Assembly (NCBI RefSeq): GCF_030684315.1
Contig: NC_081379.1
Span: 43,481,404-43,545,403 of the forward strand
Reading direction: 5' to 3'
Origin: Stegostoma tigrinum
Taxonomy: Eukaryota
DNA: 64,000 nucleotides
The notes under the pieces were generated by a model that ran no database searches, was not told where the DNA came from, and worked only from the letters and a program-made list of their open reading frames with translations. Both the position numbers and the translations under genes were made by a program. This document shows, one piece after another, positions 18,652 to 44,826 of the stretch (its first letter is position 1; each line of letters starts with the position of its first letter).

Positions 18652-19234
18652 ACAATGATGCCACCCGAAGGTTGCAGGAACAGCAACTCATATTCCGCCT
18701 GGGAACTCTGCAGCCATATGGTATCAATGTGGACTTCACCAGTTTCAAAATCTCACCTTCCCCTACTGCATCCCTAAACCAGCCCAGTTCGTCCCCTCCC
18801 CCCACTGCACCACACAACCAGCCCAGCTCTTCCCCCCCACCCACTGCATCCCAAAACCAGTCCAACCTGTCTCTGCCTCCCTAACCTGTTCTTCCTCTCA
18901 CCCATCCCTTCCTCCCACCCCAAGCCGCACCCCCATCTACCTACTAACCTCATCCCACCTCCTTGACCTGTCCGTCTTCCCTGGACTGACCTATCCCCTC
19001 CCTACCTCCCCACCTACACTCTCTCCACCTATCTTCTTTACTCTCCATCTTCGGTCCGCCTCCCCCTCTGTCCCTATTTATTCCAGAACCCTCACCCCAT
19101 CCCCCTCTCTGATGAAGGGTCTAGGCCCGAAACGTCAGCTTTTGTGCTCCTGAGATGCTGCTTGGCCTGCTGTGTTCATCCAGCCTCACATTTTATTATC
19201 TTGGAATTCTCCAGCATCTGCAGTTCCCATTATC
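18652..19234 (+). mobile_element. 5'-truncated Penelope-like element (GIY-YIG C-terminus + 3' pLTR with hammerhead motif)
   Basis: Encodes NDATRRLQEQQLIFRLGTLQPYGINVDF (PLE endonuclease C-terminus), C-rich spacer, hammerhead core; 9-bp TSD tctaactcc at 18643-18651 and 19235-19243. Confidence 0.85.
19109..19136 (+). ncRNA. Minimal type-I hammerhead ribozyme motif
   Basis: CTGATGA-A-GGGT(CTAG)GCCC-GAAA-C-GTC; loopless palindromic stem III (ACGT). Confidence 0.75.
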
Positions 19235-19235
19235 T

Positions 19236-19240
19236 CTAAC
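19236..19240 (+). promoter_or_regulatory. Branch-point consensus CTAAC for the HIRA exon at 19264
   Basis: CTAAC followed by a pyrimidine tract and CAG 21-23 nt downstream. Confidence 0.6.
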
Positions 19241-19263
19241 TCCTTTTCCCTGCTTGATTTCAG

Positions 19264-19412
19264 GTAAGCACTGACCCAGCTATGTACATAGAAGTGGAAA
19301 ATGAAGTTCCATCGGTAACAGGGTGGAAATTAAGCCGGTTAAAGTGCATGAGAGAAGGGAAACAGTGGGATACACTACTAACCAGTCGAATCCTCACTGC
19401 TGCAGGAAGCTG
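19264..19412 (+). CDS. HIRA: HIRA coding exon (VSTDPAMYIEVENEV...LSRLKCMREGKQWDTLLTSRILTAAGSC)
   Basis: tttcag acceptor, gtgagt donor, 149 nt, phase 0/2; not in the ORF track, translated by hand; matches the HIRA C-terminal domain. Confidence 0.95.
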
Positions 19413-20999
19413 GTGAGTATAAAGCCTGACAGTAATTGTGAGAGTTGATTTATAGAACCGGTGGGTTTTGAATACTGGAAGTCTCCGACTCTAATACTGA
19501 TTTTGTTATTCATCTAGTCCATTCACTATTAAACTTCTTGATCATGGCTGGGAGAGTAGTTGTTGATTTAGTGGTTGTGCTTAAAATAGTTAAGTATTTA
19601 GACTTGTTACTGATACATGTCGGATCTTTATGAATGCTGTTAAGAGTTGCAGTGTAGTAGGCTGTCTATGCACTTCTATATGATGTAACCAAGTATGTGA
19701 GTTGCTCTTTCACCTTGTCAGTCTGGGTTACTTCCATGAAGCTGCCATTATAATATAACGTTGCTGTAATAGTATGGGGTTTACAGTATTAAGACTATGG
19801 GTGACTAGCATGAACATTAATGAGGACAATAACAAAATTCAGATTTCATTTTGTGAGGGTATTTTGAAAACAAGATCGCTGACTCCATGTGACTAATGCT
19901 AGAACTTCTCAATGCATTTAAGAAGGATGTGTTGAGAGGGCAGAAGTGCTGAATTCTTTCTTGATCATTACTTTCTGGCCCCCAACAAGAAAGAATCTAG
20001 CCCAACTCTAGCATGATGTGTTGCAGGCTGATAACTTCCTAACTTGTGACAGTGGTTTTCCACCAGGCAACTTCCCAGTCCCTCCATGTTTAGGTAATTG
20101 TTCCCAGAGAGGTGTGCAGGTTTTCTCTCCTCATTCCTTGGCAGGTTTTGTGACTAGGGGTCTGGGAAAGAGAATTAACTTTAAACCCTGTCACCTAAAG
20201 TCAGCTGTTGGAACAGTTATTTTGTATTTAGACGCATGGGTTCCTTTCTCACTTACCCCCTGCTATATGAAGCACGGGTTTCAATTTGAGACGCTTTATT
20301 TAAATAGAGCTGAGTGTCACATCAGGAGCCAAAGAGTGGACGGGTTGAACTTCACAGCTTAGCCACTGCAACTCAAGTCGAGAAATTATTTATTGGCACT
20401 TGCAAGGCAAGGTGGCAAAAGTTCATTCAAGGAAGAAAAATGTAGCTGTTTTGATTTAGAACAAAAACCATTTAAAATTAGAGCCTCTACTTTGACTCCT
20501 TTACCAGACAATTTCACACTGGGGCTGAATGGACATGTTCTCTGTTTTATGATTCTGTGATAAATGGTCAAACTTATATCTAACTACATACTGGCCATGA
20601 AGCTCACAAGATTGAATTTCAAAGAGAAAACCTGATTTACTGTGGGAAGTTTCTTAGGGGTCCAGAATAATTTAAGAGAACTTTATTCAATAGGTGGAAT
20701 GTTCCAGAAAACCTTATGGTCAGCCTGCAGCGATCCATTAAAATGTGTTTAAATCTACGGGTTAAGTGCATGTTTCAAATTGACCATTTCTAGGATAGTT
20801 CATAAATACGACTGTTGTATTATCTTCAAGATTGCGTCTTCCTACAGATTGCTTTCTCTTCTTTCACCTGTGATGCTTTGCGTTATGACCAAAGAAATAT
20901 AACAGTTATTTTCTAGAACTCAGGCCTGAACGATAGATATAAACAGGCATAGCACACTCACCTGTGCAAATCAAATGAAGCAAAAACACTTGACTCGCC

Positions 21000-21550
21000 C
21001 AAATACAGTGGCTACAAGAGCAGGTTAAAGAAGTAACTCACCACCTGACTCTCATCCTGTCTACCACCTACAAGATGTGTCAGGAGTGTGACAAGTACAG
21101 CTCCAACACCACTCAAACTTGACTCCGTCTGGGACAAAGCAACCCTCTTGATTGGCATCACATCCACAAACATCCACTCCTTCCACCACCAGCAGTCAGC
21201 AGTAGCAGCAGTGTGTACTACCTACAAGATGCACTGCGCAAATTCATCAGCATCTTCTGAATCCATGGCCACTTTTATCTAGAAGCACAAGGGTCGCTGA
21301 TACACCACTTCCTAAAAATTCCCCTCCAAGTCACTTACAATTGTGACTTCAAAGTATATCGCTGTTCCTTCACTGTTGCTGGGTCAAAATCCTGGAATTC
21401 TCTACTAAATGGCATTGTGGCTGTACCCACAGCACATGGACTATAGTGGCCTAAGAAGGCAGCTCATCACCACCTTCTCAAGGGCAAATAAGGACAGGCA
21501 ATGAATGCTGGTTTTGCCGAGCAACTCCCCCATCCCGCAAGTGAATTCAA
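21000..21550 (+). mobile_element. 3' portion of an L2/CR1-clade LINE (same family as 53028-55790)
   Basis: gttccttcactgttgctgggtcaaaatcctggaattc and gggcaa..aatgctgg..gtgaat tail. Confidence 0.7.
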
Positions 21551-21649
21551 TTAAATTTACAAGAGGGAAAATAGAATGCTGCTGTGAATGTCACTTCTGG
21601 AGCATATCTGTACAATAGGTTTTGAGCCATAGATAATACTTTAATTAAA

Positions 21650-21845
21650 ATGCAACACTGCGAATGCTAGAAAGGTGAAACAAATGCAGGGAATACAAGA
21701 GAAAATCAACAGGTCTGGCAGCCTGTGTGGAGACAGAAGCAAGTTTTTCATTCTGAAGAAGGCATACCAGGCTTGAAATGTTAACTCTGTTTCTCTCTCC
21801 ACAGATGCACTCAGACTTGCTGAGTTTCTTGAATATTTCCCTGTG
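21650..21845. mobile_element. Older palindromic PLE-derived insertion
   Basis: Inverted arms; decayed core ctgaagaaggcat..gcttgaaatgtt. Confidence 0.55.
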
Positions 21846-22801
21846 TTCGATAATGCACTTGTAATGATATCAAAGACCTTTCAATAGAAAGCCACAAAAA
21901 TCAACAAAATTCAAGTCCTGGCATTAGTCGAATATGATGTGACCTACAATTCATCTACATTTTACAGACTGTTGGAGCTAGTGAAAATGCCAGTCCCTAA
22001 GTGTGTTTTTTGGTAACAAACAAACTGGCATACTGATGTCAACATTGTTGGGTGCAGGTGGCTCCTCTATTCAGAGACCTAACCTCACCTTGATTTGAAG
22101 TCACTTAATCAGATACGGTTTGCCTTTATCAAATCTATGCTGGCTTACCCTTTTGAATGGCTGCTTCTCAAAGAGAGAATTGATGTTGCCTTGGACAATT
22201 TCCCTAATGCTGATGTTAGACTGACCTGCAATTGCCAGGTTTGTCCCTCTCCAGTCTCTATTGAGCAGTGTGTAAAATTTGCAATCCCCTTGCTGTTTGC
22301 ACACCACCAACCCCCCCCAAGCCTTATCCTCTGACGCCACTCCTTTAACCAAGGAGGGTTGAAAGACTGTGATCAGTTTTGGCCCTGCTTCTGTTATCTT
22401 ACGTGAGTTTCCTTCAGTGACATAAGAGGCAGCCTAATTAGAATATGCTTTGTTAAGCTCTAATGATGCCTATATTTTTAGGACTGCCTTTCTATCCATT
22501 TTGATTCTTTTCAATATTTGCCTCCTACTGTGAAATTAACTTCATTATCTTCTTTGAAGAAGGCAGATATAAAGTAATTAATTAATCCGTCAGTCGTGCC
22601 CTCTGTTTGTACAGGATGATTCCTGTTTTCATTGCTAATCAGCTCTACTTTATCTTCTATTTTTGGTTTGGCATATTAGTTATAAACTGTACTATGAAAA
22701 ATTGATTTTTTTGTTTCCTTTGCTTATGAAAGTGAGGTGAAGCTGGTCCACTTTTGCAACCCTGTGTCAGCAAAGAAAGCTGAATTCTGAAACTGATCCA
22801 G

Positions 22802-22896
22802 CTCTCTGATGAAGGGTCTAGGCCCGAAACGTCAGCTTTTGTGCTCCTGAGATGCTGCTGGGCCTGCTGTGTTCATCCAGCCTCACATTTTATTAT
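22802..22896 (+). mobile_element. Short PLE-derived insertion with intact hammerhead motif (core 22806-22833)
   Basis: Near-identical to 19105-19200; possible 6-bp TSD atccag. Confidence 0.8.
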
Positions 22897-23256
22897 CCAG
22901 GCATGGGGGATGTTTATGGGACAAAAGAGGGAATGATTTACTCTGCACCTGACCTTTCCTATTCAAATTCGGGGGCATTCCCTATTCTCCACAATGCCTG
23001 TAGATCAGTTTCAAAACTGAGCACTGTGTCCTTTTTTGCAGCAGCCCACACACCAGCTATTGCTTTCTCTCCCAGATTTGAAATTGTTGTTGAATTCTGG
23101 GAAACTTTGGAGTTGGGTAGAGATCTTTAAATTTTTTTTGTCCCAAAGTTGACTTGAGGCTGTAGCCCTGAGATAGAGTGCTTTGATTCAACCACCCAGC
23201 TCCCATCCAGGCAATATTACCAACACATTGTGATGCTGATATGGATTATTGTGGTC

Positions 23257-23422
23257 AGAGGTAATGTGAACTGCAGATGCTGGAGAACCCAAGATAACAA
23301 AGCGTGAAGCTGGATGAACTCAGCAGGCCAAGCAGCATCTCAGGAGCACATCATGTCAGCTTTTGTGCCCCTGAGATGCTGCTTGGCCTGCTGTGTTCAT
23401 CCAGCTTCACACTTTGTTATCT
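23257..23422. mobile_element. Palindromic PLE-derived insertion, hammerhead core missing from the centre
   Basis: Inverted arms; TSD tggattattgt(g/c)gtc at 23242-23256 and 23423-23437. Confidence 0.8.
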
Positions 23423-23660
23423 TGGATTATTGTCGTCTTGGAAATTCTGAAGGATGGAGAAATTCCTATCTTAAACAAAATCCACCCTTTTGCTATCAGG
23501 CTGTGGTTTCTCCCCATCAGTAGGATTTCTCCACAACCCCCTGTTGATGAGGTGTGGTTTCTCTATTACCCCCAACTCCTGCTCCAATTCTGATGCTATT
23601 AAGCCTAATTAATGCAGAGTTTCAGTAAAACTCATTCTGATCCATTTTATTCCTTTGTAG

Positions 23661-23822
23661 TGACCTTGTAAGTGTAGCATGTGAGGAGCGGACAGTCTCT
23701 GTGTTTTCAGCAAGTGGGCGACGGCTGCTCCCTGCCATCCTTCTACAGTCGCCCATCTCTACACTGCATTGTGCGAGCCACTTTGTGATGGCTCTGTTGG
23801 CTACTGCTACACTTTCTGTCTG
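23661..23822 (+). CDS. HIRA: HIRA coding exon (DLVSVACEERTVSVFSASGRRLLPAILLQSPISTLHC...TLSVW)
   Basis: ttgtag acceptor, gtaagt donor, 162 nt, phase 2/2; GRRLL..I.L.SPISTLHC motif. Confidence 0.95.
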
Positions 23823-23941
23823 GTAAGTGCTTAAAAGTAGCACCCAAAATGCCCATCCAAATTGCTCACAGAATAGGAGCGTGAGGATGAATGTTGTGCA
23901 GAAACAACCAACTGACCTTTGCATGTGTGTGTGTTTCTGTT

Positions 23942-23960
23942 TCTTTCCTTCTCTTTCTCT

Positions 23961-23992
<32 letters not shown>
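23942..23992 (+). repeat. (CT)n microsatellite followed by a C run
   Basis: Direct observation. Confidence 0.9.
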
Positions 23993-23997
<5 letters not shown>

Positions 23998-24719
23998 CCC
24001 CCCCGCCCCCTTCTTGGGGTAGGCAAACATTGATGATGATACAATGAATACGATGTAATTGAGATAAATTCTCAGGAAAGGTTTAAAAAGCACCTCAATT
24101 TCTAATGGCAATATTTAAATGAAAAATATTGTTGAGATATGTGGATTTCCCATTAAAATTAAATGGGCAAGAATTCGAACTGTGATGAAACTAAAAATGA
24201 TTCTGCCACCACAGGTCTCTTAATATGCAAAATATGATAAATGTATGGAGTAATCTACTGGGCAGGGGATTGTAAAAAGAAAATTAGTTACTCCAGTTGA
24301 GGCCAGCAATAGCCTTGTTCTGGCTAAGATTAGCAATTTAATGTGATTTAGAAGCTAGGATCTTCTGGACAATCCAGACTCATGCTGCATTTGGTGCTCA
24401 TTCTTCCGTTTGGCACATAACTGTGTCTCATGATGATGAAAACTGACATTCAACATGAAACTAACTAACATAATCATTTGAGATTAAAACCTGTATGCGT
24501 TGAATTTATTGTTCTAAACAATCTAGATACATGGAAGTTTAGCGGCACAGAGGTGAGCTTCTGATCGCATTTAAGCTAATATGGCTTTCTAAGCTTATTG
24601 CACTGATGAAGGAACATCTCATATCTGGTGTTGCCCTGAAGCTCAGTAACTAGAGTTATTGGTGCCCACTGGGGCTGCACCTTGCTGATGTTACACAGGC
24701 CACAATTTTCAACACAAAA

Positions 24720-26120
24720 GATAGAAACATTGAAAGTAGGTTAGGGCATTTGGTCCATGGAGCCCGTTGTAGCATTCAACATGATTATGGCTGATCCTCT
24801 ATCCTAACACCATATACCTGCTCTCTCCATATATCCCTTGACACCTTTAGCCTACAGAAATCTATCAGTTCCTTTCATAAATATATTCAGTGACTTAGCA
24901 CCCATAGTTTTCTGTGATAGAGAATTCCACAAGTTCACCATCTTCTGAGTGAAGAAATTGGTCCTCATCTCAATCTGAAATGACCTGTGATAGAGTTAAG
25001 GTGTATCCTGAGACTGTGAGCCTTTATTTTGGGCCCCCTGACCACAAGAATCATCATCGTTCATTCAGTCCATCTAGCCCTGACAAAAGTTTACATATTT
25101 CTATGAGACACCGTCTCATTTTTCAAAATCCAGGTGAATACAGGCCCCATTAACTTAAACTCTCCTCCTATGGCAAACCTGCCAACCCAGGAATCAGTTG
25201 GATTAATCTTTGCTGCATTCTCTCTTTGCCAAGTATATCTTCTCTTAGGTAAGGAGACCAAAACTGAACACACTACTCTCACCAAGGCCCTGTAGAGCTG
25301 CAGTAAGCCTTCCATGCTTCTATATGCAAATCCTCGTGCAATGTAGGCCATTTACCTTCCTAATCTTTTGCTGTACCTGCATATTAGTTTTCACTGACCA
25401 GTATACAATGACGGTCAGATGCCTTTGGACATCTGCGTTTACCAATCTGTTACCATTTAACTAATACTTTGCCTTGCTGTTTTTTTTTCACTGAGGTGGA
25501 TAATTTCACATTATCCTCATTATACAGCATTTTCCAAGCATTTTCCTATGCAGTCAACTTGTCTGAAGCCTCTTTACACCCTCCTCACCATTTACAATCC
25601 CACCCAAGTTTTGTGTTATCAACAAACATTGAAATATTACATTTGAACCCCTCATCCAAATTATTGATTACATATTATGATTGTGAGGGCCCAAGCACTA
25701 ATTCCTTTGGTACCTGACTCGACATTGCCTTCCACTCTGAAGATGACCCATTTATTCTGACTCTCCGTTTCTTGTCTGTCAACCAATTCTCAATCCATGC
25801 TCTCATACTACCAACAATTCCATATGCTTTGATTTTGCATAATAACTTTTTAAATGGTAGTTCATAACAACTTCCCTCATCTATTCTGCTTGTTATGTTC
25901 TCAGAAAACTCTATTGTCAAACATGCTTTCTTTTACACAATTGCATGTTGGCTTTGTATAATTTCAGCTCTATTTTCTAAGTGTTGCTATTACAATTTTG
26001 TAATAGACTCCAGCATCTTTCCTACTGTGCAAGCTAGGCTAGGTAGTCTGTAAATGCTGATTTTTTTTTCCTCTCCTTTTTTAAATAAAGGGATTAATTT
26101 GTCACCTTTAATCTATTGGG
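24720..26120 (-). mobile_element. Degenerate CR1 LINE, antisense
   Basis: ORFs 25091-25351 (LLQLYRALVR) and 25675-25920 (WIENWLTDKKRRVRING). Confidence 0.8.
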
Positions 26121-26166
26121 ACTGTTTCAGAATCTTCAATTGAATTTTGTTTTATTGTTTTTCCAG

Positions 26167-26225
26167 GGATGCAAAGAAGCAGACTGTTTTGGTGAAAGAC
26201 GAGTCTCTAATCACTATATTATCAG
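26167..26225 (+). CDS. HIRA: HIRA coding exon (DAKKQTVLVKDESLITILS)
   Basis: ttccag acceptor, gtactt donor, 59 nt, phase 2/1; resembles DVHRQVVVVKEESLHSILA. Confidence 0.9.
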
Positions 26226-26933: not shown

Positions 26934-27177
26934 GTTTCAGAGATAGAAGGAACTGCAGATGCTGGAGAATCTGAGATAACAAAGTGTAGAGCTGGATGAA
27001 CACAGCAGGTCAAGCAGCATCAGAGGAGCAGGAAAGCTGATGTTTCAGGCCCAGACCCTTCTTCAAAAAATTTCTTCAGCCATTTCTGAAGAAGGGTCTA
27101 GGCCCAAAACATCAGCCTTCCTGCTCCTCTGATGCTGCTTGGCCTGCTGTGTTCATCCAGCTCTACATCTTGTTATC
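26934..27177. mobile_element. Palindromic PLE-derived insertion with two degenerate hammerhead motifs
   Basis: Inverted arms; 15-bp TSD ttacatgatatactg at 26919-26933 and 27178-27192. Confidence 0.8.
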
Positions 27178-30100
27178 TTACATGATATACTGATGGGACT
27201 CATTTCTGTACTTTTTTTCTTTTACAGTTGGATGGCAGTTTCCATGAATAGTCATGAACAACAGATATTATAATGTATATTCATCAAGTGCCTTTAACAT
27301 AAAGCCTTTCCTATAGTCCTTCACAGTAAAGGACATGGACACTGAGCCAGAAAGGAGACCAATTAGGAGTGACCAAAATCTTGGTTGAAGGATGGGTTTT
27401 AATGGACAAAAAAGATGATGCTGAGAGGCTTATGGAGGGAACTTTAGAAAATATGCAGCTAAAGACAATACAGCAAAAAAGTGATGTGCATCGGAAGCAC
27501 ATTTGATATGGAAAATGTGACTAAAGTGGTTTCTGAGCTGGAGACTAGATAAGACCATAGGAAAAAACTTCAAGACCAAGACTAGGATTTTAAACTTAAT
27601 GTGTGGGGAGTTAGAGGAGCTTGGTTGGCACTGCAATGATGGGCAAGTGGGACTCAACTTGGAAAGGTCAAATAAAAGCAAAGTATTGCAAATGCTGGAA
27701 ATCTGAAGTAAAAACAGACGATACTGGAGAAACTCAACAGGTCTGCCTGCATCTGCAGAGAGAGAAACAGGGTTAAGGTTTTGAGTTTAATGATTCTTCA
27801 AAATATATCTTATGTACCGGAATTTAGGTCAAGTTAGAGTTAATGGGTAAGATTATTGAAGTAATCACTTGTTGAGAAGTGTACTCTTTAATGATTAATG
27901 GCAAAAAAAATTGCCGTGGTAGGTTAAACGCGGACAGCGTATAGAGGTGAAAGTGAATGGGAAAGTATGGGATCTGAAACAGTTCAGGAATAAAACGTCT
28001 TTCATTATTCATACAGTGTAAAAGTTAGCATTCGCAATTTCTTTTCATCAGCCACCTTTCCTGAGGGCTTTTGTCTCTGGCTTATTTTTCAACTTAGTGA
28101 GAAGGGAGTCTTCATGCTGACTAAAAGACAGAAATTTCTATATTGGCAATAGTAGGCATCTTTGCCCCCATAAATATCTCAATTGATTCTCTTTCTATGG
28201 AATGGATTAGACGAGGGTCGTCCCTTTAGTTCTTTGTCCTTAACCATAGATAGTGTCATACATGTGAACTTAGGACTGGCGAGTGTTCACTGGGCTATTT
28301 GTTAATTACACCTGGTTTGTAATGACCCCCGACAGGCTGTTTTGTTGGGTTAAAATAGAACAATTGTGCCTTTTTCTGCCATTGCAGTCTCGGTTCTTTT
28401 TTGTATTTTCCTGTGCATTTCCTGTGCATCTGTTTCTGAGCAATCAAATTGAACTTGAGCAAAGCAAACACTGCTTTTTACACTCTCCTCCAGTTCACCA
28501 CCTCGTTTCCTTTTCCCCAGCAACCCACCCACCAGTACTATCCACCATGTCACAGGTGACTAGCAGGCATGTGAATTGCTGGCGTTTACATTCAGGTTTT
28601 CAGCCTAGGCCTTCTGGTTCTCCATCAGTCCATTTAACTTCATGTTCCCAAAGTTTTCTAGCCTGGCATTTTTGCATGCAGATCTAACTGGGGCATCCTA
28701 ACAACCCAACTCCAGATTAAGAAGAGCAGAAACACTCCAAATTAAAACAAATCTGGCAAAGTAGCAGGTTTCCACCAAATCCTGACCAAGATTTATATCT
28801 GAATCAGCAGCGCTAAAACAAATTAGCTGGTGAATACCTAATTGCTGTATCTGAGGGACCTTTCTGTATACAAGCTGAGTCCCCTGTTTCCTACATAACA
28901 ACAGCACCTACACATCTTACCAAGCAAAGTGCTAATGTTTGGAGCAGTTAGTAACTCTGTACAATGAAATACAAGACTTAAATTTTCACAGGAGGAGAGC
29001 AGCTCCGCACAAACATTCTCACCAAGTCATTGGGGTTCCTTATGCAGTTAACAGGAGTACATCTGAGGACCTTTGATCACCTGGCCTGACAGCTTTTAAT
29101 ATTTGCAGTAGTCTTGAAGAGTAGTCTTGCAGCATTGTTTCCATGTCTTCAGTAATGCATGCACAGTTTGAAACTGAGTCCCTGAATTGTCCTGAACCTG
29201 TTTAGCCAGGCCCATTTTCACTGTGGGTGAACCAGTTGGTGAGTTCCCAAGTTTCCCAGTCCTTGATGATTGGGAATAAGTCCAGGGATTCATGAATTCG
29301 GTTGTCTGTGTTTTGTTGCATTAGTACCTTGGGACAAAATGTGTTATGGAAAATATTATAAGGTGCAAGATATTACAAGGTGTAAGATATTAGTTCTGAA
29401 AAGATTTTCTTTTGCAAGTGATGAATGATGTATTTGGCATTTTCAGTCAAAATCCCAATCCTCCTTTGGGTAACTATGACTCAATATGTCCCTGCCAAAT
29501 TACATGACAAGATTAGAGAAACTACAGTCACTCACTCTGTGTTCTCCTTTGTCAGCCATGGCTCAATTGGTCCCAGCTCTGAGTCAGGAGTTTGTTGTGT
29601 TTCACTTGCTCTACATGACTTGAGCACAAAAATCTAGGCTAACGTTGCATGTCAGAGGTGCTGGCTTTTGGGTATTAAACCAGGGCCCTCCTGTGCCACC
29701 TTAGACGGATATAAAAGATCCAAACACATCACATCAAAGAAGAGCAGAGAGCTTATCAGTGATAATGATCAATTTCTGATGATTACTTTGTTGTTTGTGC
29801 AACTCGCAAACTGGCTTTGCCACATTACAGTAACAATTGCATTTAAAGTATTTAATTGACTATGACGTGCTTTCAGACATCCTGAGGTCTTGAAGAAGCT
29901 AGACAAAATGCACGTCTTCCATTTTCCCGACCTTCCATCTTAATTCACCATGTGGAGCAAATTTCCTGAGCAAGATCCACCAGCCGACATTGGATCAAGG
30001 AATGGGAGACCGTCAACCGGACTGTATGTGAAGGACTAATCTCCTTTAAATCATCAAATGAGAAAACTGCCAGTTGCCTCTGATGATTGGCAGTTGTTAA

Positions 30101-30784: not shown

Positions 30785-30787
<3 letters not shown>

Positions 30788-30816: not shown

Positions 30817-30820
<4 letters not shown>

Positions 30821-31166
30821 CTTATGGACTGCAATGTTCCATCTAGTGGTGTCATTATACCCATATATAGTCTGTGGAAAGATGGCTTAGTGCCTTCAAA
30901 GAACTCTCATAGTCAAAATGGGATGAGTATTCAATCTTATGTTGCAAAATTTGGTAATGCCTAGGACTGCTTCAATGTCACAGTGCATTGCCGATTACAG
31001 TTTCACTTGCAACTTAGATTTTGCTGCCACAGACTTCTCCATGAAACAAAACTGGTTTCAGTGATTGGTGATAATGGAAACTGCAGATGCTGGAGAATCC
31101 AAGATAACAAAGTGTGGAGCTGGATGAACACAGCAGGCCAAGCAGCATCTCAGGAGCACAAAAGCT

Positions 31167-31194
31167 GACGTTTCGGGCCTAGACCCTTCATCAG
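31167..31194 (-). ncRNA. Minimal hammerhead motif, minus strand
   Basis: Reverse complement reads CTGATGAAGGGTCTAGGCCCGAAACGTC. Confidence 0.75.
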
Positions 31195-31202
31195 AGAGCT
31201 GT

Positions 31203-31230
31203 CTGATGAAGGGTCTAGGCCCGAAACGTC
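31203..31230 (+). ncRNA. Minimal hammerhead motif, plus strand
   Basis: CTGATGAAGGGTCTAGGCCCGAAACGTC. Confidence 0.75.
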
Positions 31231-31904
31231 AGCTTTTGTGCTCCTGAGATGCTGCTTGGCCTGCTGTGTTCATCCAGCTCCAAACTTTGTTATCTTGGTT
31301 TCAGTGATTCATCATTTTCTCGACTGGAATGGGAATCGCTGCCAAAGTCAGCACTGGCTATTAAAGTAAGAAGCATATTGTAGCTCATATGCTGTGGTGG
31401 AGAACCAACGTGAGCCAATGTGTAAATTTGAATTGTTACGTGCAATCGGGAGCTTTGGTTAAGTATGCAAGGAATAATCTGGAATCTACGTGAAGGTGTC
31501 ACATTCATGATGTTCTACTCCTAAATTGTGGAATTCGTGAGACAGAGTGGTGTATTATAAAATACATTGGATTTGGTAAGGAAGACTGCTATACCACAGA
31601 ATGCACAATAAACGCAGACAAGAGTGTTACAAAATTTACTATACTCTCAGGCCAGCACTAAAAGTGCTGTATTGTAGAATATACAGTAATCCTTAACATA
31701 AGATGCTGTCCATCAGGACTTTAAGTATTACTGACTGCACTGTGACCCCTGACCACATATTCGAGGATGTGACTCAGTTTACTGTACGGTATAATCATCT
31801 TGTATGTTGAGCAAACTCCACTGGTATTGTTCCTTGATTTTTGGCATCTATATTTTGTGAAGATTGTGGCTGAGCTTTGATATTTTCTGACCTTTTGTCT
31901 GCAG

Positions 31905-32800: not shown

Positions 32801-33690
32801 GACCCTCGAAGATCATGGCTGATCTGTTTGTATTTTGAATTTCATATTCCCATTTACCCCTGGTAGATTCTTGGGAAGCCAGGGAATCTAAGACAATCTA
32901 CTCCTTCCTTAATAATAATAATCCTCAATCTGTTTCTGAGGCAGAATTCCAAACTTGCACAACCTTCTGAAAAAGAACATCTCTCCTTATCTCTGCTTAA
33001 AAGAGTAATCCCTAATTATGATGTTCTATGGTGAATGTATTAATACTTCAGTGAATAGGGACAAGTTATAGTGTGGCAACCTAGTTATGGTGTTGGAATC
33101 GCTACACTTTCTGACGTCCATCTGAGAGTCTGCAGTATAGAAAGAGGTTCTTTAGCTTGAGATGCCTGCATTCATTCTTTGAAGGATCTACCCAATTAGG
33201 CCTGCATATCTCAGCAAATATTTTTCCTTTCCAAGTAATTATCCAATTCCCTGTTGATCACTGATTTGGATTCAGGTCTTAATGCAGATCAGTGCAACAC
33301 GGCTGTTCTCAGAGCCATTGGCGCTTTGAAAGTTGATTGGTGATTGTACCCATGACCATTTTGTTAGTAGGAAGATGCCCTCCTTGGTAACAAACCGCTT
33401 ACAGCCCAATCGTTTTGAGTCAGAGCTTTGTGATACAGTTTTTAACCAGCCCATGTGTAACTGCTATGAGAAGGCAGCCCAATTACCCATGTAGTATCAG
33501 AATGGTCAGAACATGTCGTTTTTGTTTAAGAGGGCTGTTAAGTACTTCCAGCATCGTTTTGTTCTTTTGTTTTATTTGCTTTTTGGGGGATTTTTAAAAG
33601 CATTTTTTAAATGCAATTAATAATTTTAAATTGAATTTTGTAATGAAAGAATCTAAGCAGATCTCAAAATAGCTGACTGAAACCACTGAT

Positions 33691-33818
33691 AATGGGAACT
33701 GCAGATGCTGGAGAATCCAAGATAATAAAATGTGAGGCTGGATGAACACAGCAGGCCAAGCAGCATCTCAGGAGCACAAAAGCTGACGTTTCAGGTCTAG
33801 GCCCGAAACGTCAGCGTT
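33691..33818 (-). mobile_element. PLE-derived insertion folding back at the stem II loop
   Basis: 17-bp TSD tgactgaaaccactgat at 33674-33690 and 33819-33835. Confidence 0.8.
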
Positions 33819-34980
33819 TGACTGAAACCACTGATCTGATTTGAATAACTGGGGAAGTGTAACTAAACTGTACTTGCAAATAGACCAAACACAGCAGTCA
33901 AACAACATAAATAGCACATGGGAGTATTTATTTGAATCAGATTTAAATGCCTTGAGTGTCTGGGATTTTCCCTTACTAAAAACAATCTATTTTGCGGCCA
34001 GCAAACTGGTTCTGTTTGTAGAGATAACAGACTGGCCTTTCTGTGTAACACATTGGATCCTCACAGGGGAATGACTAGTGTATCTGTTGAAACGTACAGA
34101 CACAAATATACACCATAGCTGCTTCCAAAGCGTCCTTTATTAAACAGTATCGAAGTAGTGTATACAAATGAGTTAAAGTTTTTCTGTATGGTACATGCTT
34201 GATGTTTAGTATTGTTTTTATTCCCGGTAGCTGAAAATGGTTAATATTGAAAAGTGTAGCATTGGATTGGTTTCTTACTGTGACCTGTGTCATCAGTGGG
34301 AAACTTGAGTGTAATTTTCCCAGGTTTTGTTACAGCTTGTTAAAATACAGAATAGAATGAATGTATTAAATCAGATAACAGTAAATACCGCCTGGTAGCT
34401 GCTTTAAAATGTTTGCCACTTTGAATTTGCAAATCCTTCCAGTGCATGTGTGCTTTCCTCCCCAAGAGAATTGTTAATGTTGCTAGATCAGATCATGGCC
34501 AAACGTGAAAAGGGTGAACAGAAAGACCAGTTAAATCAGAGTGTAGTGCTTTGGCTACAATAATAATCATGAAACTCTAGTTAACATTTTGGGTCCGGTG
34601 ACCCTTCCTCAGAACTCTAGGCATTTTGTGCTAAATTGGCATGAGGTGCAGAGTATCATTGAGTGTTTGGCCACATTCGATAAGTGTAAATGCAACTCAG
34701 CTCAACTCAGCTACAGTCAGGAATAAGAGTCAGCAAGAAGACAGAGTAAGTGTTCATTATTCCTTCTGGGGGAAAAAGGTATCACTATGGTGTACAGATG
34801 GAAGAGTAGATCCCTTATCTATTTGTGTGACTCAAGCTAATGGCCTTTTTTCTAGGTTACGTTTCACAACCTTTGTGAATCTGTAATGATCTGACACCAA
34901 AGCAGGCATGATACAGATAGTCCAACTTGTGTTATTCACCTTCAGGCCTCTTGTTTCATTTGCATTGTTTTATTTTTCAG

Positions 34981-36122: not shown

Positions 36123-36204
36123 GTAGCCTTGCTTCTCAAGACCTTTGCTTGAGATTGATTGATTTTTACTCAAGTACTGTGCTAACAATTGTGTCTTATT
36201 GCAG

Positions 36205-36293: not shown

Positions 36294-36893
36294 GTAAGCA
36301 CTAAATCATTTAACACATCAGGCAGAGATCTTTGTTGTGTGATAGCAGTATTAAAGCACTGGTGTATAGTGCAGTTATCTACATACATAGTCAGAACGTG
36401 GCCAGTACTTTTCAAGCAATACGGTTCTGTTTAGATCTGTGTAATTTCAGAAATGCTGCAGTTTGTTATTTTCAGTTTTATTTTGTTTTGCTCAGTAAGC
36501 AATTGAACTATTCAGAACAGTATACTTTGGAACAAGACCAGGAAACTCCCATGTGAAGGCAACTGATCTCAGCCAGCTTGTGTTATGGGTTGACAAGTCA
36601 GCTCTACCACCTTTTGGCCAGAAATGAAGGAAATCGGAGAGTCCCTGCATCTGATGGTTACTCTTTGAGAAAAGATTGTTGGCGCTGAGAACAAAGCTGT
36701 GGCATTCACATGCTCAAAACCCCCTGTGAAGGCTCAAACTTGAATTACCACTTAGGAGTTAGAGGTGTTAGTTTAACCATGTTCTGGCTAGATATCTTCA
36801 GCTGACAATATGTTTTGTGTGGAGGCAGAAAAGAGGGAATGTAACAGTCCAACTTTAACCAGGGGCATGACTGGGGCATGTTCTGCCCCAGTC

Positions 36894-36990
36894 TCTCTGA
36901 TGAAGGGTCTAGGCCCGAAACGTCAGCTTTTGTGCTCCTGAGATGCTGCTTGGCCTGCTGTGTTCATCCAGCCTCACATTTTATTATATT
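36894..36990 (+). mobile_element. Short PLE-derived insertion with intact hammerhead motif (core 36897-36924)
   Basis: 17-bp TSD gcatgactggggcatgt at 36865-36881 and 36992-37008. Confidence 0.85.
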
Positions 36991-37257
36991 AGCATGACTG
37001 GGGCATGTCACTTGCTTTTCTTCCCACATTCAACTTCATCTTCCTTCGAGGGAATATAAGGAAACATTTTTGCATGAAAAATTAGGTGTTAAATAATTTG
37101 TTCTATTTATTTTAATTTCAGCAAAATTTGCCGACTCCACACTGTGTAGCCATTGTATAAGAGGGAAGAGGCAGGTCTAGGACTGAAACACTTAACATTA
37201 CGAGTTGGGAATTGCAAGCTGCAGTTTGCCCTGTGACTGTGTCTGGCAACACCTGCC

Positions 37258-37387
37258 TTCTTAAGGAGGGTCCTGACCCGAAACGTCAAGCTTTCCTGTT
37301 CCCCTGATGCTGCTTGGCCTGCTGTGTTCATCCAGCTTCACACTGTGTTATCTCAGATTCTCCAGCATCGTCAGTTCCTACTACCTC
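37258..37387 (+). mobile_element. PLE pLTR fragment with variant hammerhead (stem II GGGT-CCTG-ACCC)
   Basis: Homologous to 19110-19237. Confidence 0.7.
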
Positions 37388-37399
37388 AGTAAAAGTAAA

Positions 37400-38470
37400 G
37401 AGGTCCTTTTCTAAATGACAGGCACAGGGTTCAGTGTTTGGCTCCCAGCTATTCACAATATATGTATTATTGACCAAGGTTTTGGAGTAGAATTGTAACT
37501 TGAGTTGTGGCTGTTGAGGTTGGTTGGCTCGCTGAGCTGGTTTGATGTTATTGATTTAGATGAGGAAACTGTCATACTTCCAAGTTTGCAGGAGACACAA
37601 AACGAGGTGGGAGTGTATGCTGTGAGGATTGCAAAGACACTTCAGTGTGCTTTGGACAAATTAAGTCAATGGAAAAGTACATGACAGATGCAGTATATTG
37701 TGGATAAATGAGAGATTATCCACTTTGGTAGCAAAACCTAGACAGGTACCAAAAACTAGGCAGGCCAACCGAATGGTGATTGATTGGGAAAGGGAGTGGT
37801 GCAATGAGATCTGGTAATTTTTGTACACCAGTCATTGAAAGTGACCATGCTGGTGAAGAGGGCCAAAGGTATGATGGCCTTTTATACCAAGAGGATTTGT
37901 ACAGGAGCAGGAATATTTTGCTGATACTGTCAAGGGCTTAGGTAAGACCATGTGGAGTAACATGTGCAGTTTTGTCTCGTTATCTGAGGAAAGATGCTCT
38001 GACTATGTAGAAAGTGCAGCAATGGTTTACTGGCCTGATTCATCGGGTTGTGAGACTGACTATGAGGAGGGATTGGATTGGTTGGGACTCTATCCAATTG
38101 AGTTTAGAATAACGAGGAGGGAGTCTCATAGAAACCTACGAGATTCTAACAGGATTAGTCAGGGTGCAAGAAAGATGTTCACGATGCCCAAAACCAAGGG
38201 TAACAGTCTAAGGATAAGAGGTAGGCCTTTTAAGATAAGGAGAAATTTCATCAACAAGAAGTCAACTAGCAGAAGCCAATTGAGGCCAAAACATTGAATG
38301 TTTTCAAGAAGGAATTCAATATAGTTCTTAGGGCTAAAGGATGAAAGGTTATGGGGAGAAAGTGGGAACAGGGTATTGGATGATCAGGCATGATCATATT
38401 GAGTGGCATGGATGGCTTGAAGGGTCAAATGCCCTGTTCCTGCTCCTACATTCGATGTTTCTGTGTTTTT
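37400..38470 (+). mobile_element. Degenerate CR1 LINE 3' half
   Basis: QGSV.G.QLFTIY and FAGDTK remnants; 3'UTR with cctgttcctgctcct tail. Confidence 0.75.
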
Positions 38471-38664
38471 CTAGCAGTTTTTGTTTTATACATGTGGGTA
38501 AGAGATTGTGTGCTACAGTCTGTACTTGTAACTGTGTGAGATTGATTTCTGTGGTATGCAAACTCATATCCTTTAGTGCTAGACTTCCCAATCAGTGATG
38601 TAAGAATTAGAGCTGTTGCAGTTTCTGAGCATTTATCTGAAAGGTCTTTTCGTTCCAAATGCAG

Positions 38665-38781
38665 GGACTGCGGAAAAGAGAGCTGCTAAAGGAAATGCTT
38701 CCTGTGATTGGACAGAATCTCCGATTCCAGAGACTCTTCACGGAGTACCAGGACCAGCTGGACCTTCTGAAAGACAAGTAG
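38665..38781 (+). CDS. HIRA: HIRA terminal coding exon (GLRKRELLKEMLPVIGQNLRFQRLFTEYQDQLDLLKDK*)
   Basis: atgcag acceptor, in-frame TAG at 38779-38781; matches the HIRA C-terminus. Confidence 0.96.
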   Translation, partial: GLRKRELLKEMLPVIGQNLRFQRLFTEYQDQLDLLKDK

Positions 38782-39526
38782 CATTACCCCGTAGTTTTTT
38801 TTCTTTGAGGATCAGACTGTGCTAGTTCTCGGGGAGATTTGCTGTGGTCAGCTGGTGACCCCGTTTGGGAGAGATGGACTTGTGAGGATTTGGGGTTCGA
38901 CCTGGGAGAGCCGCCTACGTTTAGTTCCACCAAGCTGGCCTACCTCAGGTCGCGACGTTATCGCGGAAACGGCGTTGCTGGTCTGAATGCATCACTTCGC
39001 AACTAGAGACCGTGCAGTGCACGTGTACACAGTTGATCTGCGGCGGTACTGCAGGACATGGGTGACCGGGCGGCCAGTGCTCCAACCCAGTGTTTGGTTG
39101 GAGGTGACCAAGATTGATGACTCTACCCAACTTGTACACTGGCCTCCTTACTTACCAGATAGAGTGACTTCGCACCCTGTGCCCACAATAAGCTACCAAG
39201 TCAAATGCTGTATGACACTCAGCAATTTACTGGTTGTTCCTTTCCATAGAGAGGAAAGGGCAACGTAGATGTGAAAGCCATCAGGCTTCAAGTCTCCTCA
39301 GTTAGAGGATGAGCTGCTGAGTTCAGACTTTTCACCGTGTAGTTTTCAGTTTGCCTGATGTACTAAGTTACACATTTGTTTACTGTCAGTCGTTGTTAAA
39401 AGTGTGAATGCGAGAAAAAGAAATTCTAATGAGTGACCATGAATATGGCAAAGTTGTACAGAAACCTAATCCGCCCTTTGGTACCTTTTAACTTTATACA
39501 GGCAATTTTTTTGTTCTTTTTTATAA

Positions 39527-39532
39527 AATAAA
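39527..39532 (+). terminator. Candidate HIRA polyadenylation signal AATAAA
   Basis: AATAAA about 750 nt after the stop, U-rich upstream and GU/U-rich downstream. Confidence 0.55.
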
Positions 39533-41809
39533 GATAGAATATTGTATCTCTGTTTTCCCCTGTTGGAATTACAACATTCCATACGAGGCAACCCATGTAG
39601 AAGTATGTCTACTTATGTGTTAACCAAGCCCTGGTGTAGGCAAAGAATACAGATTGTTCTTGCTGAACTGAACAGTGATTAATATGATGATAAATGCTGC
39701 AACACTGAAGTCACAGTGAAACTATCTGAATTTTGTATGAAAGTCAAGTTGATCAAGGCTGTGTCTACAGTTGAGCAGCCTGCAGCCCCATCTTGAAACC
39801 ACGAGAGCCTCAAGGTTTCACGTTTGACTTTTCAATACCCTGAACGTCTAATTGAACGTCAGCAGCTGTGATCTGAGTATTGCAATGGAGCAACAGCACC
39901 CTCTTTCCTGACTCTTAAAAGCATAACTCCGAAGTTTCAACCCTGAACTACAGACCATTTACTGCAACACAAACACCTCTGTCCTTCCTCTTGTTGACGA
40001 CCATCCTTCTGCTATCCTGAATTCTCAACACCTTGTGGTATGACAACTTCCTGGAATGTTTGATCCAGGAAACACATCCTTCCCAAAGCTCCAGCTGCCC
40101 CTCAAGCTCAGAGTTTAGTAGTAATAGACATTCTCTACACACACGAGCCCCCAAGGCACATGAAATATCTTGATTTCCAATGTGATGCACTAACTACCAG
40201 CAGTAGGTCTTATCTACTCATTACAGCCTTAAAAGAAACTTGATTTTTCTTACAATCTAGTTGTACCTTTTTTAAGCTTAATTTTAATTAATGTTTCTTG
40301 ATGTGTTGTGTGCTACTGCTTACGTTATTAATTTACTTGCCATGATTTCTGATTTTAGTTTTTTGGCTCCTAGTTTGAGATAATGAGAAATATTTACCAA
40401 ATAATCACTTGTTTCCCTGTCATGTTACACCTTGAGTTTTGTTTTAATCCAACTGCCTGATACAATTTGCTTCGAATTGATTTACACATTGTCAAACTCC
40501 TTCACCACTGCCCCCTGTGTAACAATCAGCTCTTGCTCCTACCTCTGCCTTGTTTTGCTTTTTCTTGCCCTGCTCTCACTCAGCTCTCCCTGTTCGCTGC
40601 TGGTCTTGTGCTTGTTCTGACACCGTTGTTAACTTCCCACTGAGCTCACACTGCTGGAGTAAATTGAAAAACAACCCAGAATGGACTTGAGCGTTATTTG
40701 CTTTCTGTTTGCAGAGTTACCTGCGCTGTGTACAATCTTGTACGGGAATATTTTTAAGCTGGGCAGCATCACAGTATATGAGGCTGAATTATCTGGATAG
40801 CTCTCTGTTGGTACTGCTGGGGTCTAATCAGGGAGACTATGAAAGAGCAATACTGGAGACAATGGGGTATTGCTCGTGACCATACTTGGGTGGGTGGATT
40901 GGTGGGTTTGCATATTTAGTTCACCGTCATTTCTCCCACGATGGGTAAAGCACTAGCAAAGAAACGGACATGAGCAACAGTAGACCCAGGCTGTCTCCTG
41001 GGGGTTGCCCTATAAATAAGGCCCATTAAGGACATAGGATGGACTGGTAAACCCTTTTATGAGAGGCCTAATCCTCCTGAGATTTTTGAATTAAAGTTAG
41101 GAGAGTTAGCAGTTGATAACTTGATCTCTCTAATGTCTATTATTGCAATGTGAAATTAACTGGATAACATTTTTTTGTTGAATAAGCTCCTAATATTCCT
41201 TGGTGGTGCCAGCAAGGTTCGGCCTCCTGGGCCCATCTGCTCCAGGCCTGCTTCCTGCTTTTTCTCCTTACCGTTTTTGTTCTCTTGCTTTATTTATCCT
41301 CCTTCTTCATCTTCTGGTCAGGGGAGGGGCGGTAGGTGACATCACGGGGGGAGTAGCCAGAGTGGGCGGTGGCCTGGAATGGCAGGATGTCATTGGTTAG
41401 CTGGCTTGGGACTCATGGAGGCAGCGAAGATGAACCTTCTTTCAGCTTTACCTTTTTATTCTTTTCATTGACGTATTCGAATGTTGTGGGATTGTGATGA
41501 CAGTTGAAGCTTTTTACTGTATTTTACCATGTTATTCGTTGTAGAGTACAAGTGGTGATGAATCAAATCATTAAATTGTGACGTAAATAATATTGATCCT
41601 GACAGAAATGCCATGGATTTTTGAAAGGGTCTTCCTTTCCAACATTGTGTGAAATAGCACTAGCAATCTGTATCTGTGGTTATAGAAGGGTTAATTGGAG
41701 CAGGCTTGGGGGCCTGAAAAGCCTCCTGTTTCTGTGGCACTAAGTTGCTCGAGCTCCATGTAAATTGCATTCAAATTCATGTTTCCAAAGTGACATGCCC
41801 GGTTGTATT

Positions 41810-44240
41810 TTTCTTAATTCGTTCTGGGATGTGAGCTTCACAAGATCAGCATTTATTGCACATCCCTAATTAGTAAGCCACCGTCTTGAACTGCTGCAGT
41901 TACACTTCAAGAGAATGTTCCAGGATTTTGAAGCAGCAACAGTGAAGGAACAGCGATGTAGTTCCAAATCAGATTGGTATGTGACTTGGTAGAAAATTTG
42001 AAGGTGGTGATTGTCTCATGTCGACTGCCGTTGTCCTTCGAAGGCATGAATTCAGAAGATATTGTCAAAGGAGCCTTGGTTAGGTACTGCAGTCCTTCTT
42101 GTAGATGGTACACATTGCAGCTATGATGTGCCACTATTGGAGGCCATCAGTGTTTAAAGTGATGGATGGGGTGTCAATCAAAGGAACTACTTTGCTTCAG
42201 ATTGCCAGTGAGTTTCTTGAGTGTTGTTGGAATTACACTCATCCCTGGCAACTGGAGAATATTCCATTTGTCTCCTGCTTTGTGATTTTTAGATATTGAT
42301 AGCGGTATTTGGAGGTGATTTACTTACAGAAGAACATAGAACATTACAGCGCAGGGATGATTTGCTCTTGCTCTTGCTCTTGCAGTCAGTGGGTCTTGAA
42401 GTTTATCACTCATGGTAACTCCTTGGATGGTGATAGTAGAACAATTCTGAGCCAATGTCACCGAAGGAATGGTGATATATTTCCAACTTGGGATGGTGAC
42501 TGGCTTGGAGGGGAACTTGCAGTTGGTGGTGTTCTCATATGTCTGCTGTCCTTGTCCTTCTAGATGGGGAGGCAATGGCCTAGTGGTGTTATCGCTGGAC
42601 TATTAATCCAGAGACCCAGATAACATTCAGGAGACCTGAGTTTGAATCCTGCCTCGGCAGATGGTGGAGTTTGAATCCGATAAATATTTGGAATTAACAG
42701 TCTAATGGTGGCCATGAATCCATTGTCAATTGTTGGAAAAATCCATTTGGTTCACCAGTGTTCCTTAGGGACGAAAACTGCCATCCTTACCTAGTTTGGC
42801 CTGCATGTGACTCCAGACCCACAGCAATGTGGTTGACTCTTAACTGCCCTCTGGGCAGCTGGAGATGGGCAACAAATGCTGCCTGGCCAGTGATGCCCTC
42901 ATCCTGTGAATGAATAAAGAAAAAAGGAATCAGCAATGGTTGTCAATTGAATGTCAAAGAGAGCTGGATGAATTCTCTCTTGTTGGAGTTAGTCATTGCT
43001 TGGTGCATGTGTGACACAAATGTAATTTGACATTTATCAACATAAGCCCGAGTGCTGCCCAGATCTTGCTACTAGGGGCTTTGGTTCCTTCATATTCTGA
43101 AGTGACCAGTCTTGAAGACTGCAGTGGTCAGTGAACATCCCCACTTATGACCTTATGTTGTTTTAAAAAATCAGTTGTGGGGTGGGGGTGTCACTGGCAT
43201 TTATTGTGTGTCCCTAGTTGCCCTGAGAAGGTTCTGTTGAGTTCCCTTTTGAATTGCACTCCATATGCTGTAGATAGATCCACAATGCTGTTAGGGAAGA
43301 AATTCCAAGATTTTGAGCCAATGGCGCTGAAGGAATGGTGATACATTTCCAAGTTGGGATGGTGACTGGCTTGGAGGGGAACTTGCAGTTGGTGGTATTC
43401 TCATATGTCTGCTGTCCTTGTCCTTCTAGATGGAAGTGGTTATGGGTTTGGAAGGTGCTGTCTAAAGGTCTGTGGTGAACTTCTGCAATGCAGTGCTGCT
43501 GCTGAGTGTTGGTGGTGGAAAGAATAGATGTAGCCATCAAGTGGGCTGCTTTGGTTTGGATAGCATCATGATTCTTGAGTGTTGTTGGAGCTACACTCAC
43601 TCAGGCATGTGGAGGGTATTCCATCACACTCCTGCCTTGTGCTTTGTTGATGGTGGACAGGCTTTGGGGATTCAGGAGGGTAGTTACTGTCTGCAGTATT
43701 CCTAACCTCTGTCCTGCTGCTGTAGCCTCTATTTATGTGGTGAATCCAGTTGAGTTTCTGGTCAATGGTAACCCCCAGCATGTTGATAGTGTGGGATTCA
43801 GTGATGATGAGACCATTGAATGTCAAAAGCAGTGGTTAGATTTTCTCTTATTGGAGATTACAATTGCCAGAGGGAAGGTTACTGATAAAGCAAGTAGAGA
43901 TGCATGGGCCTGGGATATAATAATGAGAAATCTTTGTAGGCTGAAATAACTGATCTCAAGCAACCATTTTCCTTTCTCTGAGGTAAGCTTCCAACCAGTG
44001 AAGAGTTGACCCAGGTGCCTTTGACTTCATGTTTGCTAGATATCACTATTTCTATGCTCAGTCAAATGCTTCCTTGATTTGCAAGGCAGCCAGTCTTATA
44101 TCACCTCTTGAATTTAGCACCCATTGGCCATATTGCAATCAAAGCTTTGATGAGATCTAGAGAGTAGTGACCCTGGCATTCGTACTGACCATCAGTGTTA
44201 CACTTGATAGCACTGTCAGTGACATTTCTCATCACTTTGC
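41810..44240 (-). mobile_element. Cluster of antisense L2/CR1-clade LINE fragments
   Basis: ORF 43566-43826 (LGVTIDQKLNW) and repeated 3'UTR pieces homologous to 55500-55790. Confidence 0.75.
42567..42925 (+). mobile_element. tRNA-headed SINE-like element sharing 5' and 3' ends with the LINE at 53028
   Basis: tggcctagtgg A box, gagtttgaatcc B box, tail gggcaacaaatgctg...gaatgaataaag. Confidence 0.7.
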
Positions 44241-44527
44241 AGAGAACTTCTATGGGCTACATAAGCAAAGTTGTTGCCATAGTCCCAGAGGACCGTAGGG
44301 GGCTGCTCTCTCATTAGAGAGAGACCAGTGGTGGTGATTTAACCCAAGGGTCACCACACATCAGGGAAGGGATGAAGTTGAGAAGGTGGGACCTCAGTCA
44401 GTAAGTGAAAATAAGCTCAATTTCTCTCACTGGGGAATTGTTTATTTTACAGTTTGTTTCTGGCCATTATTTGTAGATTTCCAAAAGTGGAGCTGAAAGC
44501 TGGTGGTGGAGCACTTTGACACTCTGC

Positions 44528-44543
44528 CCACCAGAGGGCAGCA
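44528..44543 (+). promoter_or_regulatory. CTCF-like motif CCACCAGAGGGCAGCA
   Basis: Close match to the CTCF core consensus in non-repeat sequence. Confidence 0.45.
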
Positions 44544-44736
44544 ATAGCCAACCTATCATTGCAAGACTGCACCTATCTGGTGTGGCAGTGATGTCAATTT
44601 CAGTTCCTCGACAGTCAATTCAAGAGCAAATTTCAGCTTTTATTTTACAGTACATTAAACCTCTGACTGTGTACTAACTTATCTCTGAGAGAAGGGAAGG
44701 CTGTCATTCACAGAGATTTTCAAACACTGGAAACCA

Positions 44737-44826
44737 GAAGGGTCTAGGCCCGAAACGTCAGCCTTCCTGCTCCTCTGTTGCTGCTTGGCCTGCTGTGTTC
44801 ACCCAGCTGTACACCTTGTTATCTCA
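44737..44826 (+). mobile_element. PLE pLTR fragment, hammerhead 5' core truncated
   Basis: gaagggtctaggcccgaaacgtcagc... homologous to 27090-27177. Confidence 0.7.

Follow-up and report, generated by a model that had tools for sequence, protein, structure and literature searches.

In a 64,000-nucleotide stretch of the Stegostoma tigrinum genome (contig NC_081379.1, positions 43,481,404 to 43,545,403 of the forward strand; the whole stretch is hereafter the window), short repeats carrying a minimal hammerhead ribozyme motif lie between positions 18652 and 44826 and, judged from their sequence, are fragments of a terminal repeat (pLTR) that belongs to a young autonomous Penelope-like element (PLE) of Neptune type. 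The 5' ends of the short copies are fixed at two places, four bases upstream of the ribozyme core (-4) and at the first base after the GUC cleavage triplet (+28; positions are counted from the C of CUGAUGA), which goes beyond plain random truncation. We consider it probable that twin priming at internal sites, with run-off from capped or ribozyme-cut RNA 5' ends, makes the short copies and that a continuous template makes the long ones. An earlier note on this DNA had proposed a PLE origin, a minimal type I hammerhead and separate insertions with target-site duplications (TSDs), all of which stand, and had also regarded the short units as a non-autonomous retroelement in their own right, which we do not uphold, as they match the pLTR and share their main haplotypes with long copies, and some of their arms enter the 5' untranslated region (UTR) or open reading frame (ORF) of the autonomous element. 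Nothing is new in the class of element, its motif, its tail or the inverted arrangement of copies; the value of the present work lies in the end statistics.

Insertions in the window and their parent element

Nine insertion loci were called by Blast and nhmmer within positions 18652-44826 (one per 2.9 kb), eight of which span 88-241 bp. The five identical 28-mer cores claimed in the earlier note were all found in place, at 19109, 22806, 31203 and 36897 on the plus strand and 31194 on the minus strand (0 expected from 100 shuffles), and a sixth core, at 27086, has 3 mismatches. TSD-like repeats of 9-17 bp were found at six of the nine loci and one of 6 bp at another (by chance, at least 10 nt were common to 8 of 2,000 random flank pairs), but none was found at the two decayed copies 37259..37387 and 44737..44824. 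The density of about one copy per 3 kb proposed for this region is right; the genome-wide copy-number count that the note had suggested gave 92,176 exact cores in 3.2 Gb, or one per 35 kb, the window being richer than the genome. A 29-mer downstream of the core occurs 115,739 times genome-wide. The features are as follows.

18652..19237, plus: 5'-truncated PLE copy with the end of the endonuclease ORF (18657-18884), 3' UTR, hammerhead, both priming sites and tail
18643-18651 / 19235-19243: 9-bp TSD of the long copy 18652..19237
19109..19136, plus: minimal hammerhead core, cut predicted at 19136/19137 from known hammerhead numbering; putative RNA start at 19105
19194..19237, plus: two internal reverse-transcription start regions, each ending ATTATCT (~19201, ~19236), with a 35-nt tail between
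22801..22897, plus: untailed short copy that begins at -4 and is preceded by a G; flanking repeat of 6 bp only
23254..23426: head-to-head pair without most of the core; minus arm tailed, plus arm untailed; 11-bp TSD
26939..27179: head-to-head pair of the older subfamily (CUGAAGA core); 15-bp TSD
31070..31298: head-to-head pair, each arm with an exact core, at 31194 in the tailed minus arm and at 31203 in the untailed plus arm; 14-bp TSD
33688..33820, minus: minus arm carrying the tail, its junction with an inverted piece of 27 nt lying inside stem II; 17-bp TSD
36893..36990, plus: short copy starting at -4, untailed; 17-bp TSD; the 5' junction includes a short stretch of target DNA in inverted orientation
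37259..37387, plus: decayed tailed copy, older subfamily
44737..44824, plus: decayed untailed copy, older subfamily

The long copy at 18652-19237 encodes the last 75 amino acids of the GIY-YIG region of the element, bearing out the claim that the longest copy joins the motif to a PLE endonuclease C-terminus; a 39-nt repeat encodes the C-terminal tail (18756-18864). At 36865-36892, between TSD and element, part of the target is present in inverted copy, suggesting a template switch onto target DNA.

A complete unit, found by walking upstream at locus L113, measures 3,579 bp between two repeats and has an 11-bp TSD. The ORF of the element (1,073-1,079 amino acids, starting at +167) encodes a reverse transcriptase (RT), then a CNRRKCYTC linker and then GIY-YIG, and among the best 150 scored hits of a protein search with its N-terminus, 68 had open frames of at least 1,071 amino acids (hand count). 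A domain search gave RVT_1 (E 3e-5) and GIY-YIG (E 0.004), both below the curated cut-offs; homologues of the ORF carry PF00078, PF26215 and PF01541, and the closest named protein (76% identity) is from shark. The linker between RT and endonuclease (EN) corresponds to the CX2-5CxxC layout given for Neptune and Nematis (PMC8557442). Because the RT-linker-GIY-YIG layout is present and only Neptune and Poseidon have been reported among vertebrate PLEs (Li et al. 2026, 10.64898/2026.07.22.740005), the clade is probably Neptune-type, a name given from motifs and host group. The parent family includes pLTRs from partial tandems, direct or inverted. The two repeats within one element differ by 0.30%, compared to 1.17% between elements, and are identical in 12 of 17 cases. 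Across the endonuclease stretch, 30 copies agree at 97-98% (lowest mean 92.5%), and their 5' ends are graded. A count of 517 for an RT 27-mer represents a minority variant and was excluded as a copy number, as was a count of 7 matches.

A 27-nt minisatellite within the ORF (L113:6599-6726, and also in L281, L284 and L287) varies in copy number, giving units of 3,576 to 3,717 bp. Loci L289 and L297 are insertions of two long head-to-head arms, every arm matched with an open frame of more than 1,080 amino acids. Four near-identical long insertions on contig C44 (L142-L145) share one inversion junction at 25 kb and 586 kb spacing and are probably a segmental duplication.

Ends of the short copies

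Core-anchored arms from the first 3 Mb of contig C1 ended at most 6 nt upstream of the core in 34 of 101 cases, about 40 times the upstream rate. A sample of 118 copies anchored downstream, which covers 98 of 100 listed places and removes the bias of anchoring on the core, had 32 of the 95 copies at risk ending at -6 to +6, two at -7 to -49 and one end in 96 at +7 to +27; six arms (from four insertions) ended at exactly +28. In this sample 61 copies reached at least 50 nt upstream of the core (beyond -49), so that about half of the sampled copies are not short. Genome-wide, with a start defined by two non-matching bases before it, 9,498 starts were counted at -4 and 3,622 at +28, compared to 593, 967, 723 and 595 at +25, +27, +29 and +30, and 29 of 30 examined +28 matches were true ends.

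The two ends differ in the base before them. Starts at -4 are usually preceded by an extra G: among the matches listed, the base before the end was G in 82 of 100 at -4 compared to 20 of 100 at +28 (hand counts), and G preceded the -4 end in 12 of 15 cases in which the base one further upstream is T. Copying of the cap by the RT would yield such a G, as known from L1 and cDNA work, and the sequence context at -4 presumably resembles a TCT initiator. A splice junction at -4 was rejected, there being no AG before -4 in the element and no shared upstream exon.

At +28, head-to-head arms are often joined through an AGCT palindrome centred on the cut site (709 junctions), and although all are 4-nt microhomologies, microhomology alone does not explain them because equal palindromes nearby, ACGT five bases upstream and GGCC 26 bases downstream, give only about 50 loci and 23 respectively. 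Such pairs might also arise if an antisense template folded back and primed itself, a route put forward for the Penelope elements of rotifers (PMC3846280), with the fixed ends lying where fold-back is easy. The frequency of palindromic junctions agrees with this, but we think it very improbable: use of the nearby palindromes is lower by a factor of 14-30, the same -4 and +28 ends are found in single copies that have no inverted partner, the arms almost always end at two different sites, and internal priming on sense RNA from both strands has been shown in vitro for a related element (PMC11167929).

The 3' ends likewise fall at two places. Among 223 copies not selected for length they cluster at +90 to +97 and +126 to +132 (about +92 and +129), both sites closing with ATTATCT, and exactly one arm was tailed in 80 of 87 head-to-head pairs. 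TSDs of at least 10 bp, mostly 13-17 bp, were found at 54 of 68 short pairs. Subfamily variants were common to both arms in 59 of 74 pairs (21.7 when shuffled), and the arms also matched in length, 57 pairs from unbiased loci comprising 9 long-long, 2 mixed and 46 short-short where about 16 mixed would be expected if the arms were independent (counted by hand, with one or more further mixed pairs overlooked, among them L006, which lay at the edge of a locus). The one-tailed pairs and paired arm classes fit the two-strand cutting and two internal starts described in vitro (PMC11167929). An insertion of the young family at 56891-56976 consists of a tailed minus arm and a short inverted piece, without core and with a 16-bp TSD.

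The longer copies behave differently at the ribozyme. Of the 68 intact-frame hits, 65 were examined as ORF-bearing copies; none of the 43 that reach +6 of the upstream repeat stops at -6 to +6 (p=1.4e-6 compared to 32 of 95), and none of the 45 that reach +30 stops at +27 to +29, a result that is weak alone at the 6% rate seen at +28. This suggests that the templates of long copies ran across the upstream ribozyme, and the idea that a capped -4 RNA was the full-length template too was rejected on the 0 of 43.

It could be argued that there is one long RNA, and that the enzyme stalls early at a hairpin, or at a protein bound over the ribozyme, so that neither cap nor cleavage is needed. A stable hairpin does cover 0 to +29, and processivity may be lower just after initiation than once 3.5 kb have been copied, which would explain the lack of upstream stops in ORF-bearing copies. 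We nevertheless judge this to be improbable, as an enzyme halted at the base of the hairpin should leave ends at +30, where the 595 starts are at background and a stall is not supported. The actual peak lies at the catalytic site and has a width of a single base, just one end in 96 falls within the hairpin, and the G at -5 is left unexplained.

Whether the short copies form a separate family can be judged from their relationship to the long ones. All of the four commonest haplotypes have both long and short members, rare haplotypes being short-only in small numbers, and in 15 of 105 tailed short arms the sequence of the autonomous element continues for at least 8 nt beyond +129, reaching 55-110 nt into the ORF in three. 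Across 228 short arms there was no recurring unique 3' flank of the kind that a shared transduction would leave, the two 20-mers that do repeat resembling the element, and a short head-to-tail partner was found in only 1 of 101 core-anchored arms, with no head-to-tail hammerhead array in the window. The short copies are thus likely by-products of the autonomous element. The opposite case, in which short copies have an internal promoter, are transcribed alone and are re-mobilised in trans like a short interspersed element or a monomeric retrozyme, is to us unlikely, but it is not without merit: the short copies have a fixed 5' start, their own TSDs and at least 9,498 members starting at -4, and as ORF-bearing copies never end there, a short RNA distinct from the long one could be what starts at -4. 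Any 3' transductions would be masked by internal priming, Penelope of D. virilis has an internal promoter (PMC2377424), and pLTRs can move other DNA in trans (PMC3846280). Older haplotypes are also mostly short (20 start-class and 3 long, compared to 40 and 69), a pattern that a short-only lineage would give as well. The long members of the commonest haplotypes, the arms that enter the 5' UTR and ORF, the lack of recurring flanks and the scarcity of head-to-tail partners speak against it, as does the variation of junctions between insertions, which are not recopied.

Templates, the predicted ribozyme and the proposed RNA cycle

The core has the anatomy given in the earlier note, with CUGAUGA, an extra A, a 4-bp stem II (GGGU/GCCC) with a CUAG loop, GAAA, a loopless ACGU stem III and a GUC triplet, and the CUGANGA, extra base, stem II, GAAA, palindromic 15.2-16.2 and NUH of a minimal type I hammerhead are all present. 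That note's caution about stem I was justified, since it has only 2 bp in the genomic sequence, short of the 4-5 bp expected. The covariance-model search that it had recommended gave no hammerhead family of Rfam at E<=1, and the Rfam miRNA matches are the palindromic insertions themselves. Per-site divergence among 92 copies was 0.76% in the core and 1.70% outside it, the variable sites being N7 and loop II, although this is a weak test; a covariation survey of 294 cores was dominated by one family and thus uninformative, and older families keep the stem II pairing by eye. Self-cleavage after GUC is a prediction, of which the copy ends may be an indirect genomic footprint. An ATG within the core opens a 13-codon frame (19113-19153); the main ORF here starts 163 nt later, and cleavage would remove that ATG. 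The main ORF of the Anolis element starts at an ATG inside the hammerhead core (PMC11167929).

We suggest the following cycle, of which the cleavage, the cap and the circle are steps that we infer from the sequence. Both nicked target strands would prime cDNA, one at each internal site near the front end of the RNA. The -4 position would be the capped transcription start, the cap being copied as G, and +28 would be the 5' end left by ribozyme cleavage, from which the RT runs off. The two cDNAs would then be joined head to head, often via the AGCT palindrome exposed by the cut. Long copies would come from a template continuous across the ribozyme, circular or multimeric. A linear RNA cut at its 3' ribozyme would lose the 3' priming sites downstream, so that nothing but short run-off products could be copied from it; on a circle, priming would be internal and the cDNA could exceed unit length, as has been proposed for PLEs (PMC4209133). 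In vitro work on a Poseidon PLE has shown priming inside the RNA, cleavage of both strands and ribozyme cutting aided by protein (PMC11167929). A circle from cutting at both repeats is the likeliest template of the long copies, ahead of multimeric read-through RNA or template jumping, and we hold it with about even confidence; these two fit the long-copy data too, and the data do not separate them from the circle.

Beyond the older haplotypes already mentioned, several results weigh against this cycle. The unbiased end sample came from one 3-Mb end of contig C1. At +28, the AGCT palindromic junction accounts for 60 of 100 matches listed, and once such junctions are removed the excess is about 2-fold over +29 and about 1.5-fold over +27. 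The older subfamily, which has no palindrome, gave 356 starts compared to 217 and 54 (narrower pattern), and its +28 matches were true ends in only 11 of 20 by eye and 14 by script; this replicate is only suggestive of a +28 peak because both the test and the +29 control hold subfamily variants. At -4, most G's at -5 can derive from the partner arm, which ends in G, and few junctions have a clearly untemplated G. Not all pairs came from one molecule, because 5 of 74 have a T/G difference at +54 between arms. The predicted monomer fold is an inactive hairpin in which CUGAUG pairs with CGUCAG (-11.4 compared to -5.1 kcal/mol), and the active-like dimer (-13.3 kcal/mol) lies about 25 kcal/mol above the dimer minimum (-38.0 kcal/mol). 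Cutting would need help, as this fold hides the core; the Anolis PLE ribozyme cuts only with the element's protein. In Anolis, none of the RNA reads was found to end where the ribozyme cuts, and the in vitro reaction did not need cleavage (PMC11167929).

More tentatively, and with rather less confidence than an even chance would deserve, the genome could be viewed as a fossil record of the PLE RNA cycle, with the capped precursor recorded at -4, the cut linear RNA at +28, and the ligated circle alone giving full-length and more-than-unit copies. If so, the minimal hammerhead would be an active in vivo switch turning a transcript into a productive template; the majority of the 100,000 stubs would then be the price paid when priming occurs before the RNA has circularised. 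A one-base peak of ends at a catalytic site over thousands of insertions would be rare in vivo evidence of cutting, and full-length read-through narrows the template to a circle, a multimer or a jump. As the family is young, with many intact ORFs and exactly predicted RNA ends, the role of the hammerhead is directly testable.

Comparison with known systems and other repeats

The element resembles the EN+ PLEs of the Neptune clade (PMC8557442; PMC3846280) in its single ORF with RT, CX2-5CxxC linker and C-terminal GIY-YIG, and also in heavy 5' truncation, partial-tandem pLTRs, inverted 5' copies, a 30-40-bp tail at one end and a ribozyme in the pLTR. It differs in its very high copy number, its youth, the sharply fixed 5' ends at -4 and +28 and an ORF starting 167 nt after the core rather than inside it; its TSDs are 13-17 bp compared to the 8-10 bp reported in the rotifer (PMC3846280; PMC8557442). 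The role of the hammerhead in PLEs has been called unclear, possibly that of a parasite of the element (PMC8557442).

With the minimal hammerheads of metazoan PLEs (Cervera and de la Pena 2014, PMC4209133), for which dimer cleavage and a circular template were proposed, it shares type I topology, the extra base 9/10.1, G10.1-C11.1, the palindromic loopless stem III and an occurrence mostly as single motifs from truncated copies. Stems II and I are 4 and 2 bp here, compared to 7-8 and 4-5 bp in the consensus, although a D. virilis variant also has a 2-bp stem I; that work had no in vivo evidence, whereas here the copy ends map to the cut site. The Anolis Poseidon element PAc (Frangieh et al. 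2024, PMC11167929) likewise has two adjacent internal RT starts bounding the tail, cutting and extension of both target strands and a ribozyme near the front end of the RNA, but it belongs to another clade, and its authors observed no cut-site RNA ends and concluded that unprocessed RNA is the main substrate. Metazoan non-LTR (long terminal repeat) retrozymes (PMC7229834; Li et al. 2026) are also short non-coding units with a type I hammerhead and pLTR kinship, but they form head-to-tail tandem repeats (150-450 bp) in which the hammerhead is typically canonical and circular RNA is abundant, unlike the single or head-to-head copies with a minimal core found here. In a literature search that left most subscription papers and Repbase uncovered, no report was found of PLE insertions starting at the hammerhead cut site; a mapping of genomic ends in the supplements of PMC11167929 may be relevant to such starts.

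Decayed copies elsewhere in the window, at 2607-2788, 6688-6769, 21753-21830, 27684-27759 and 45042-45257, belong to one or more PLE-like families that are older, have another stem II and carry a GUU triplet; the first of these copies is a head-to-head pair. Other non-LTR RT open frames lie at 7375-8694, 54717-55238 and 59297-61149, and from their motifs we take these to be CR1/L2-like.

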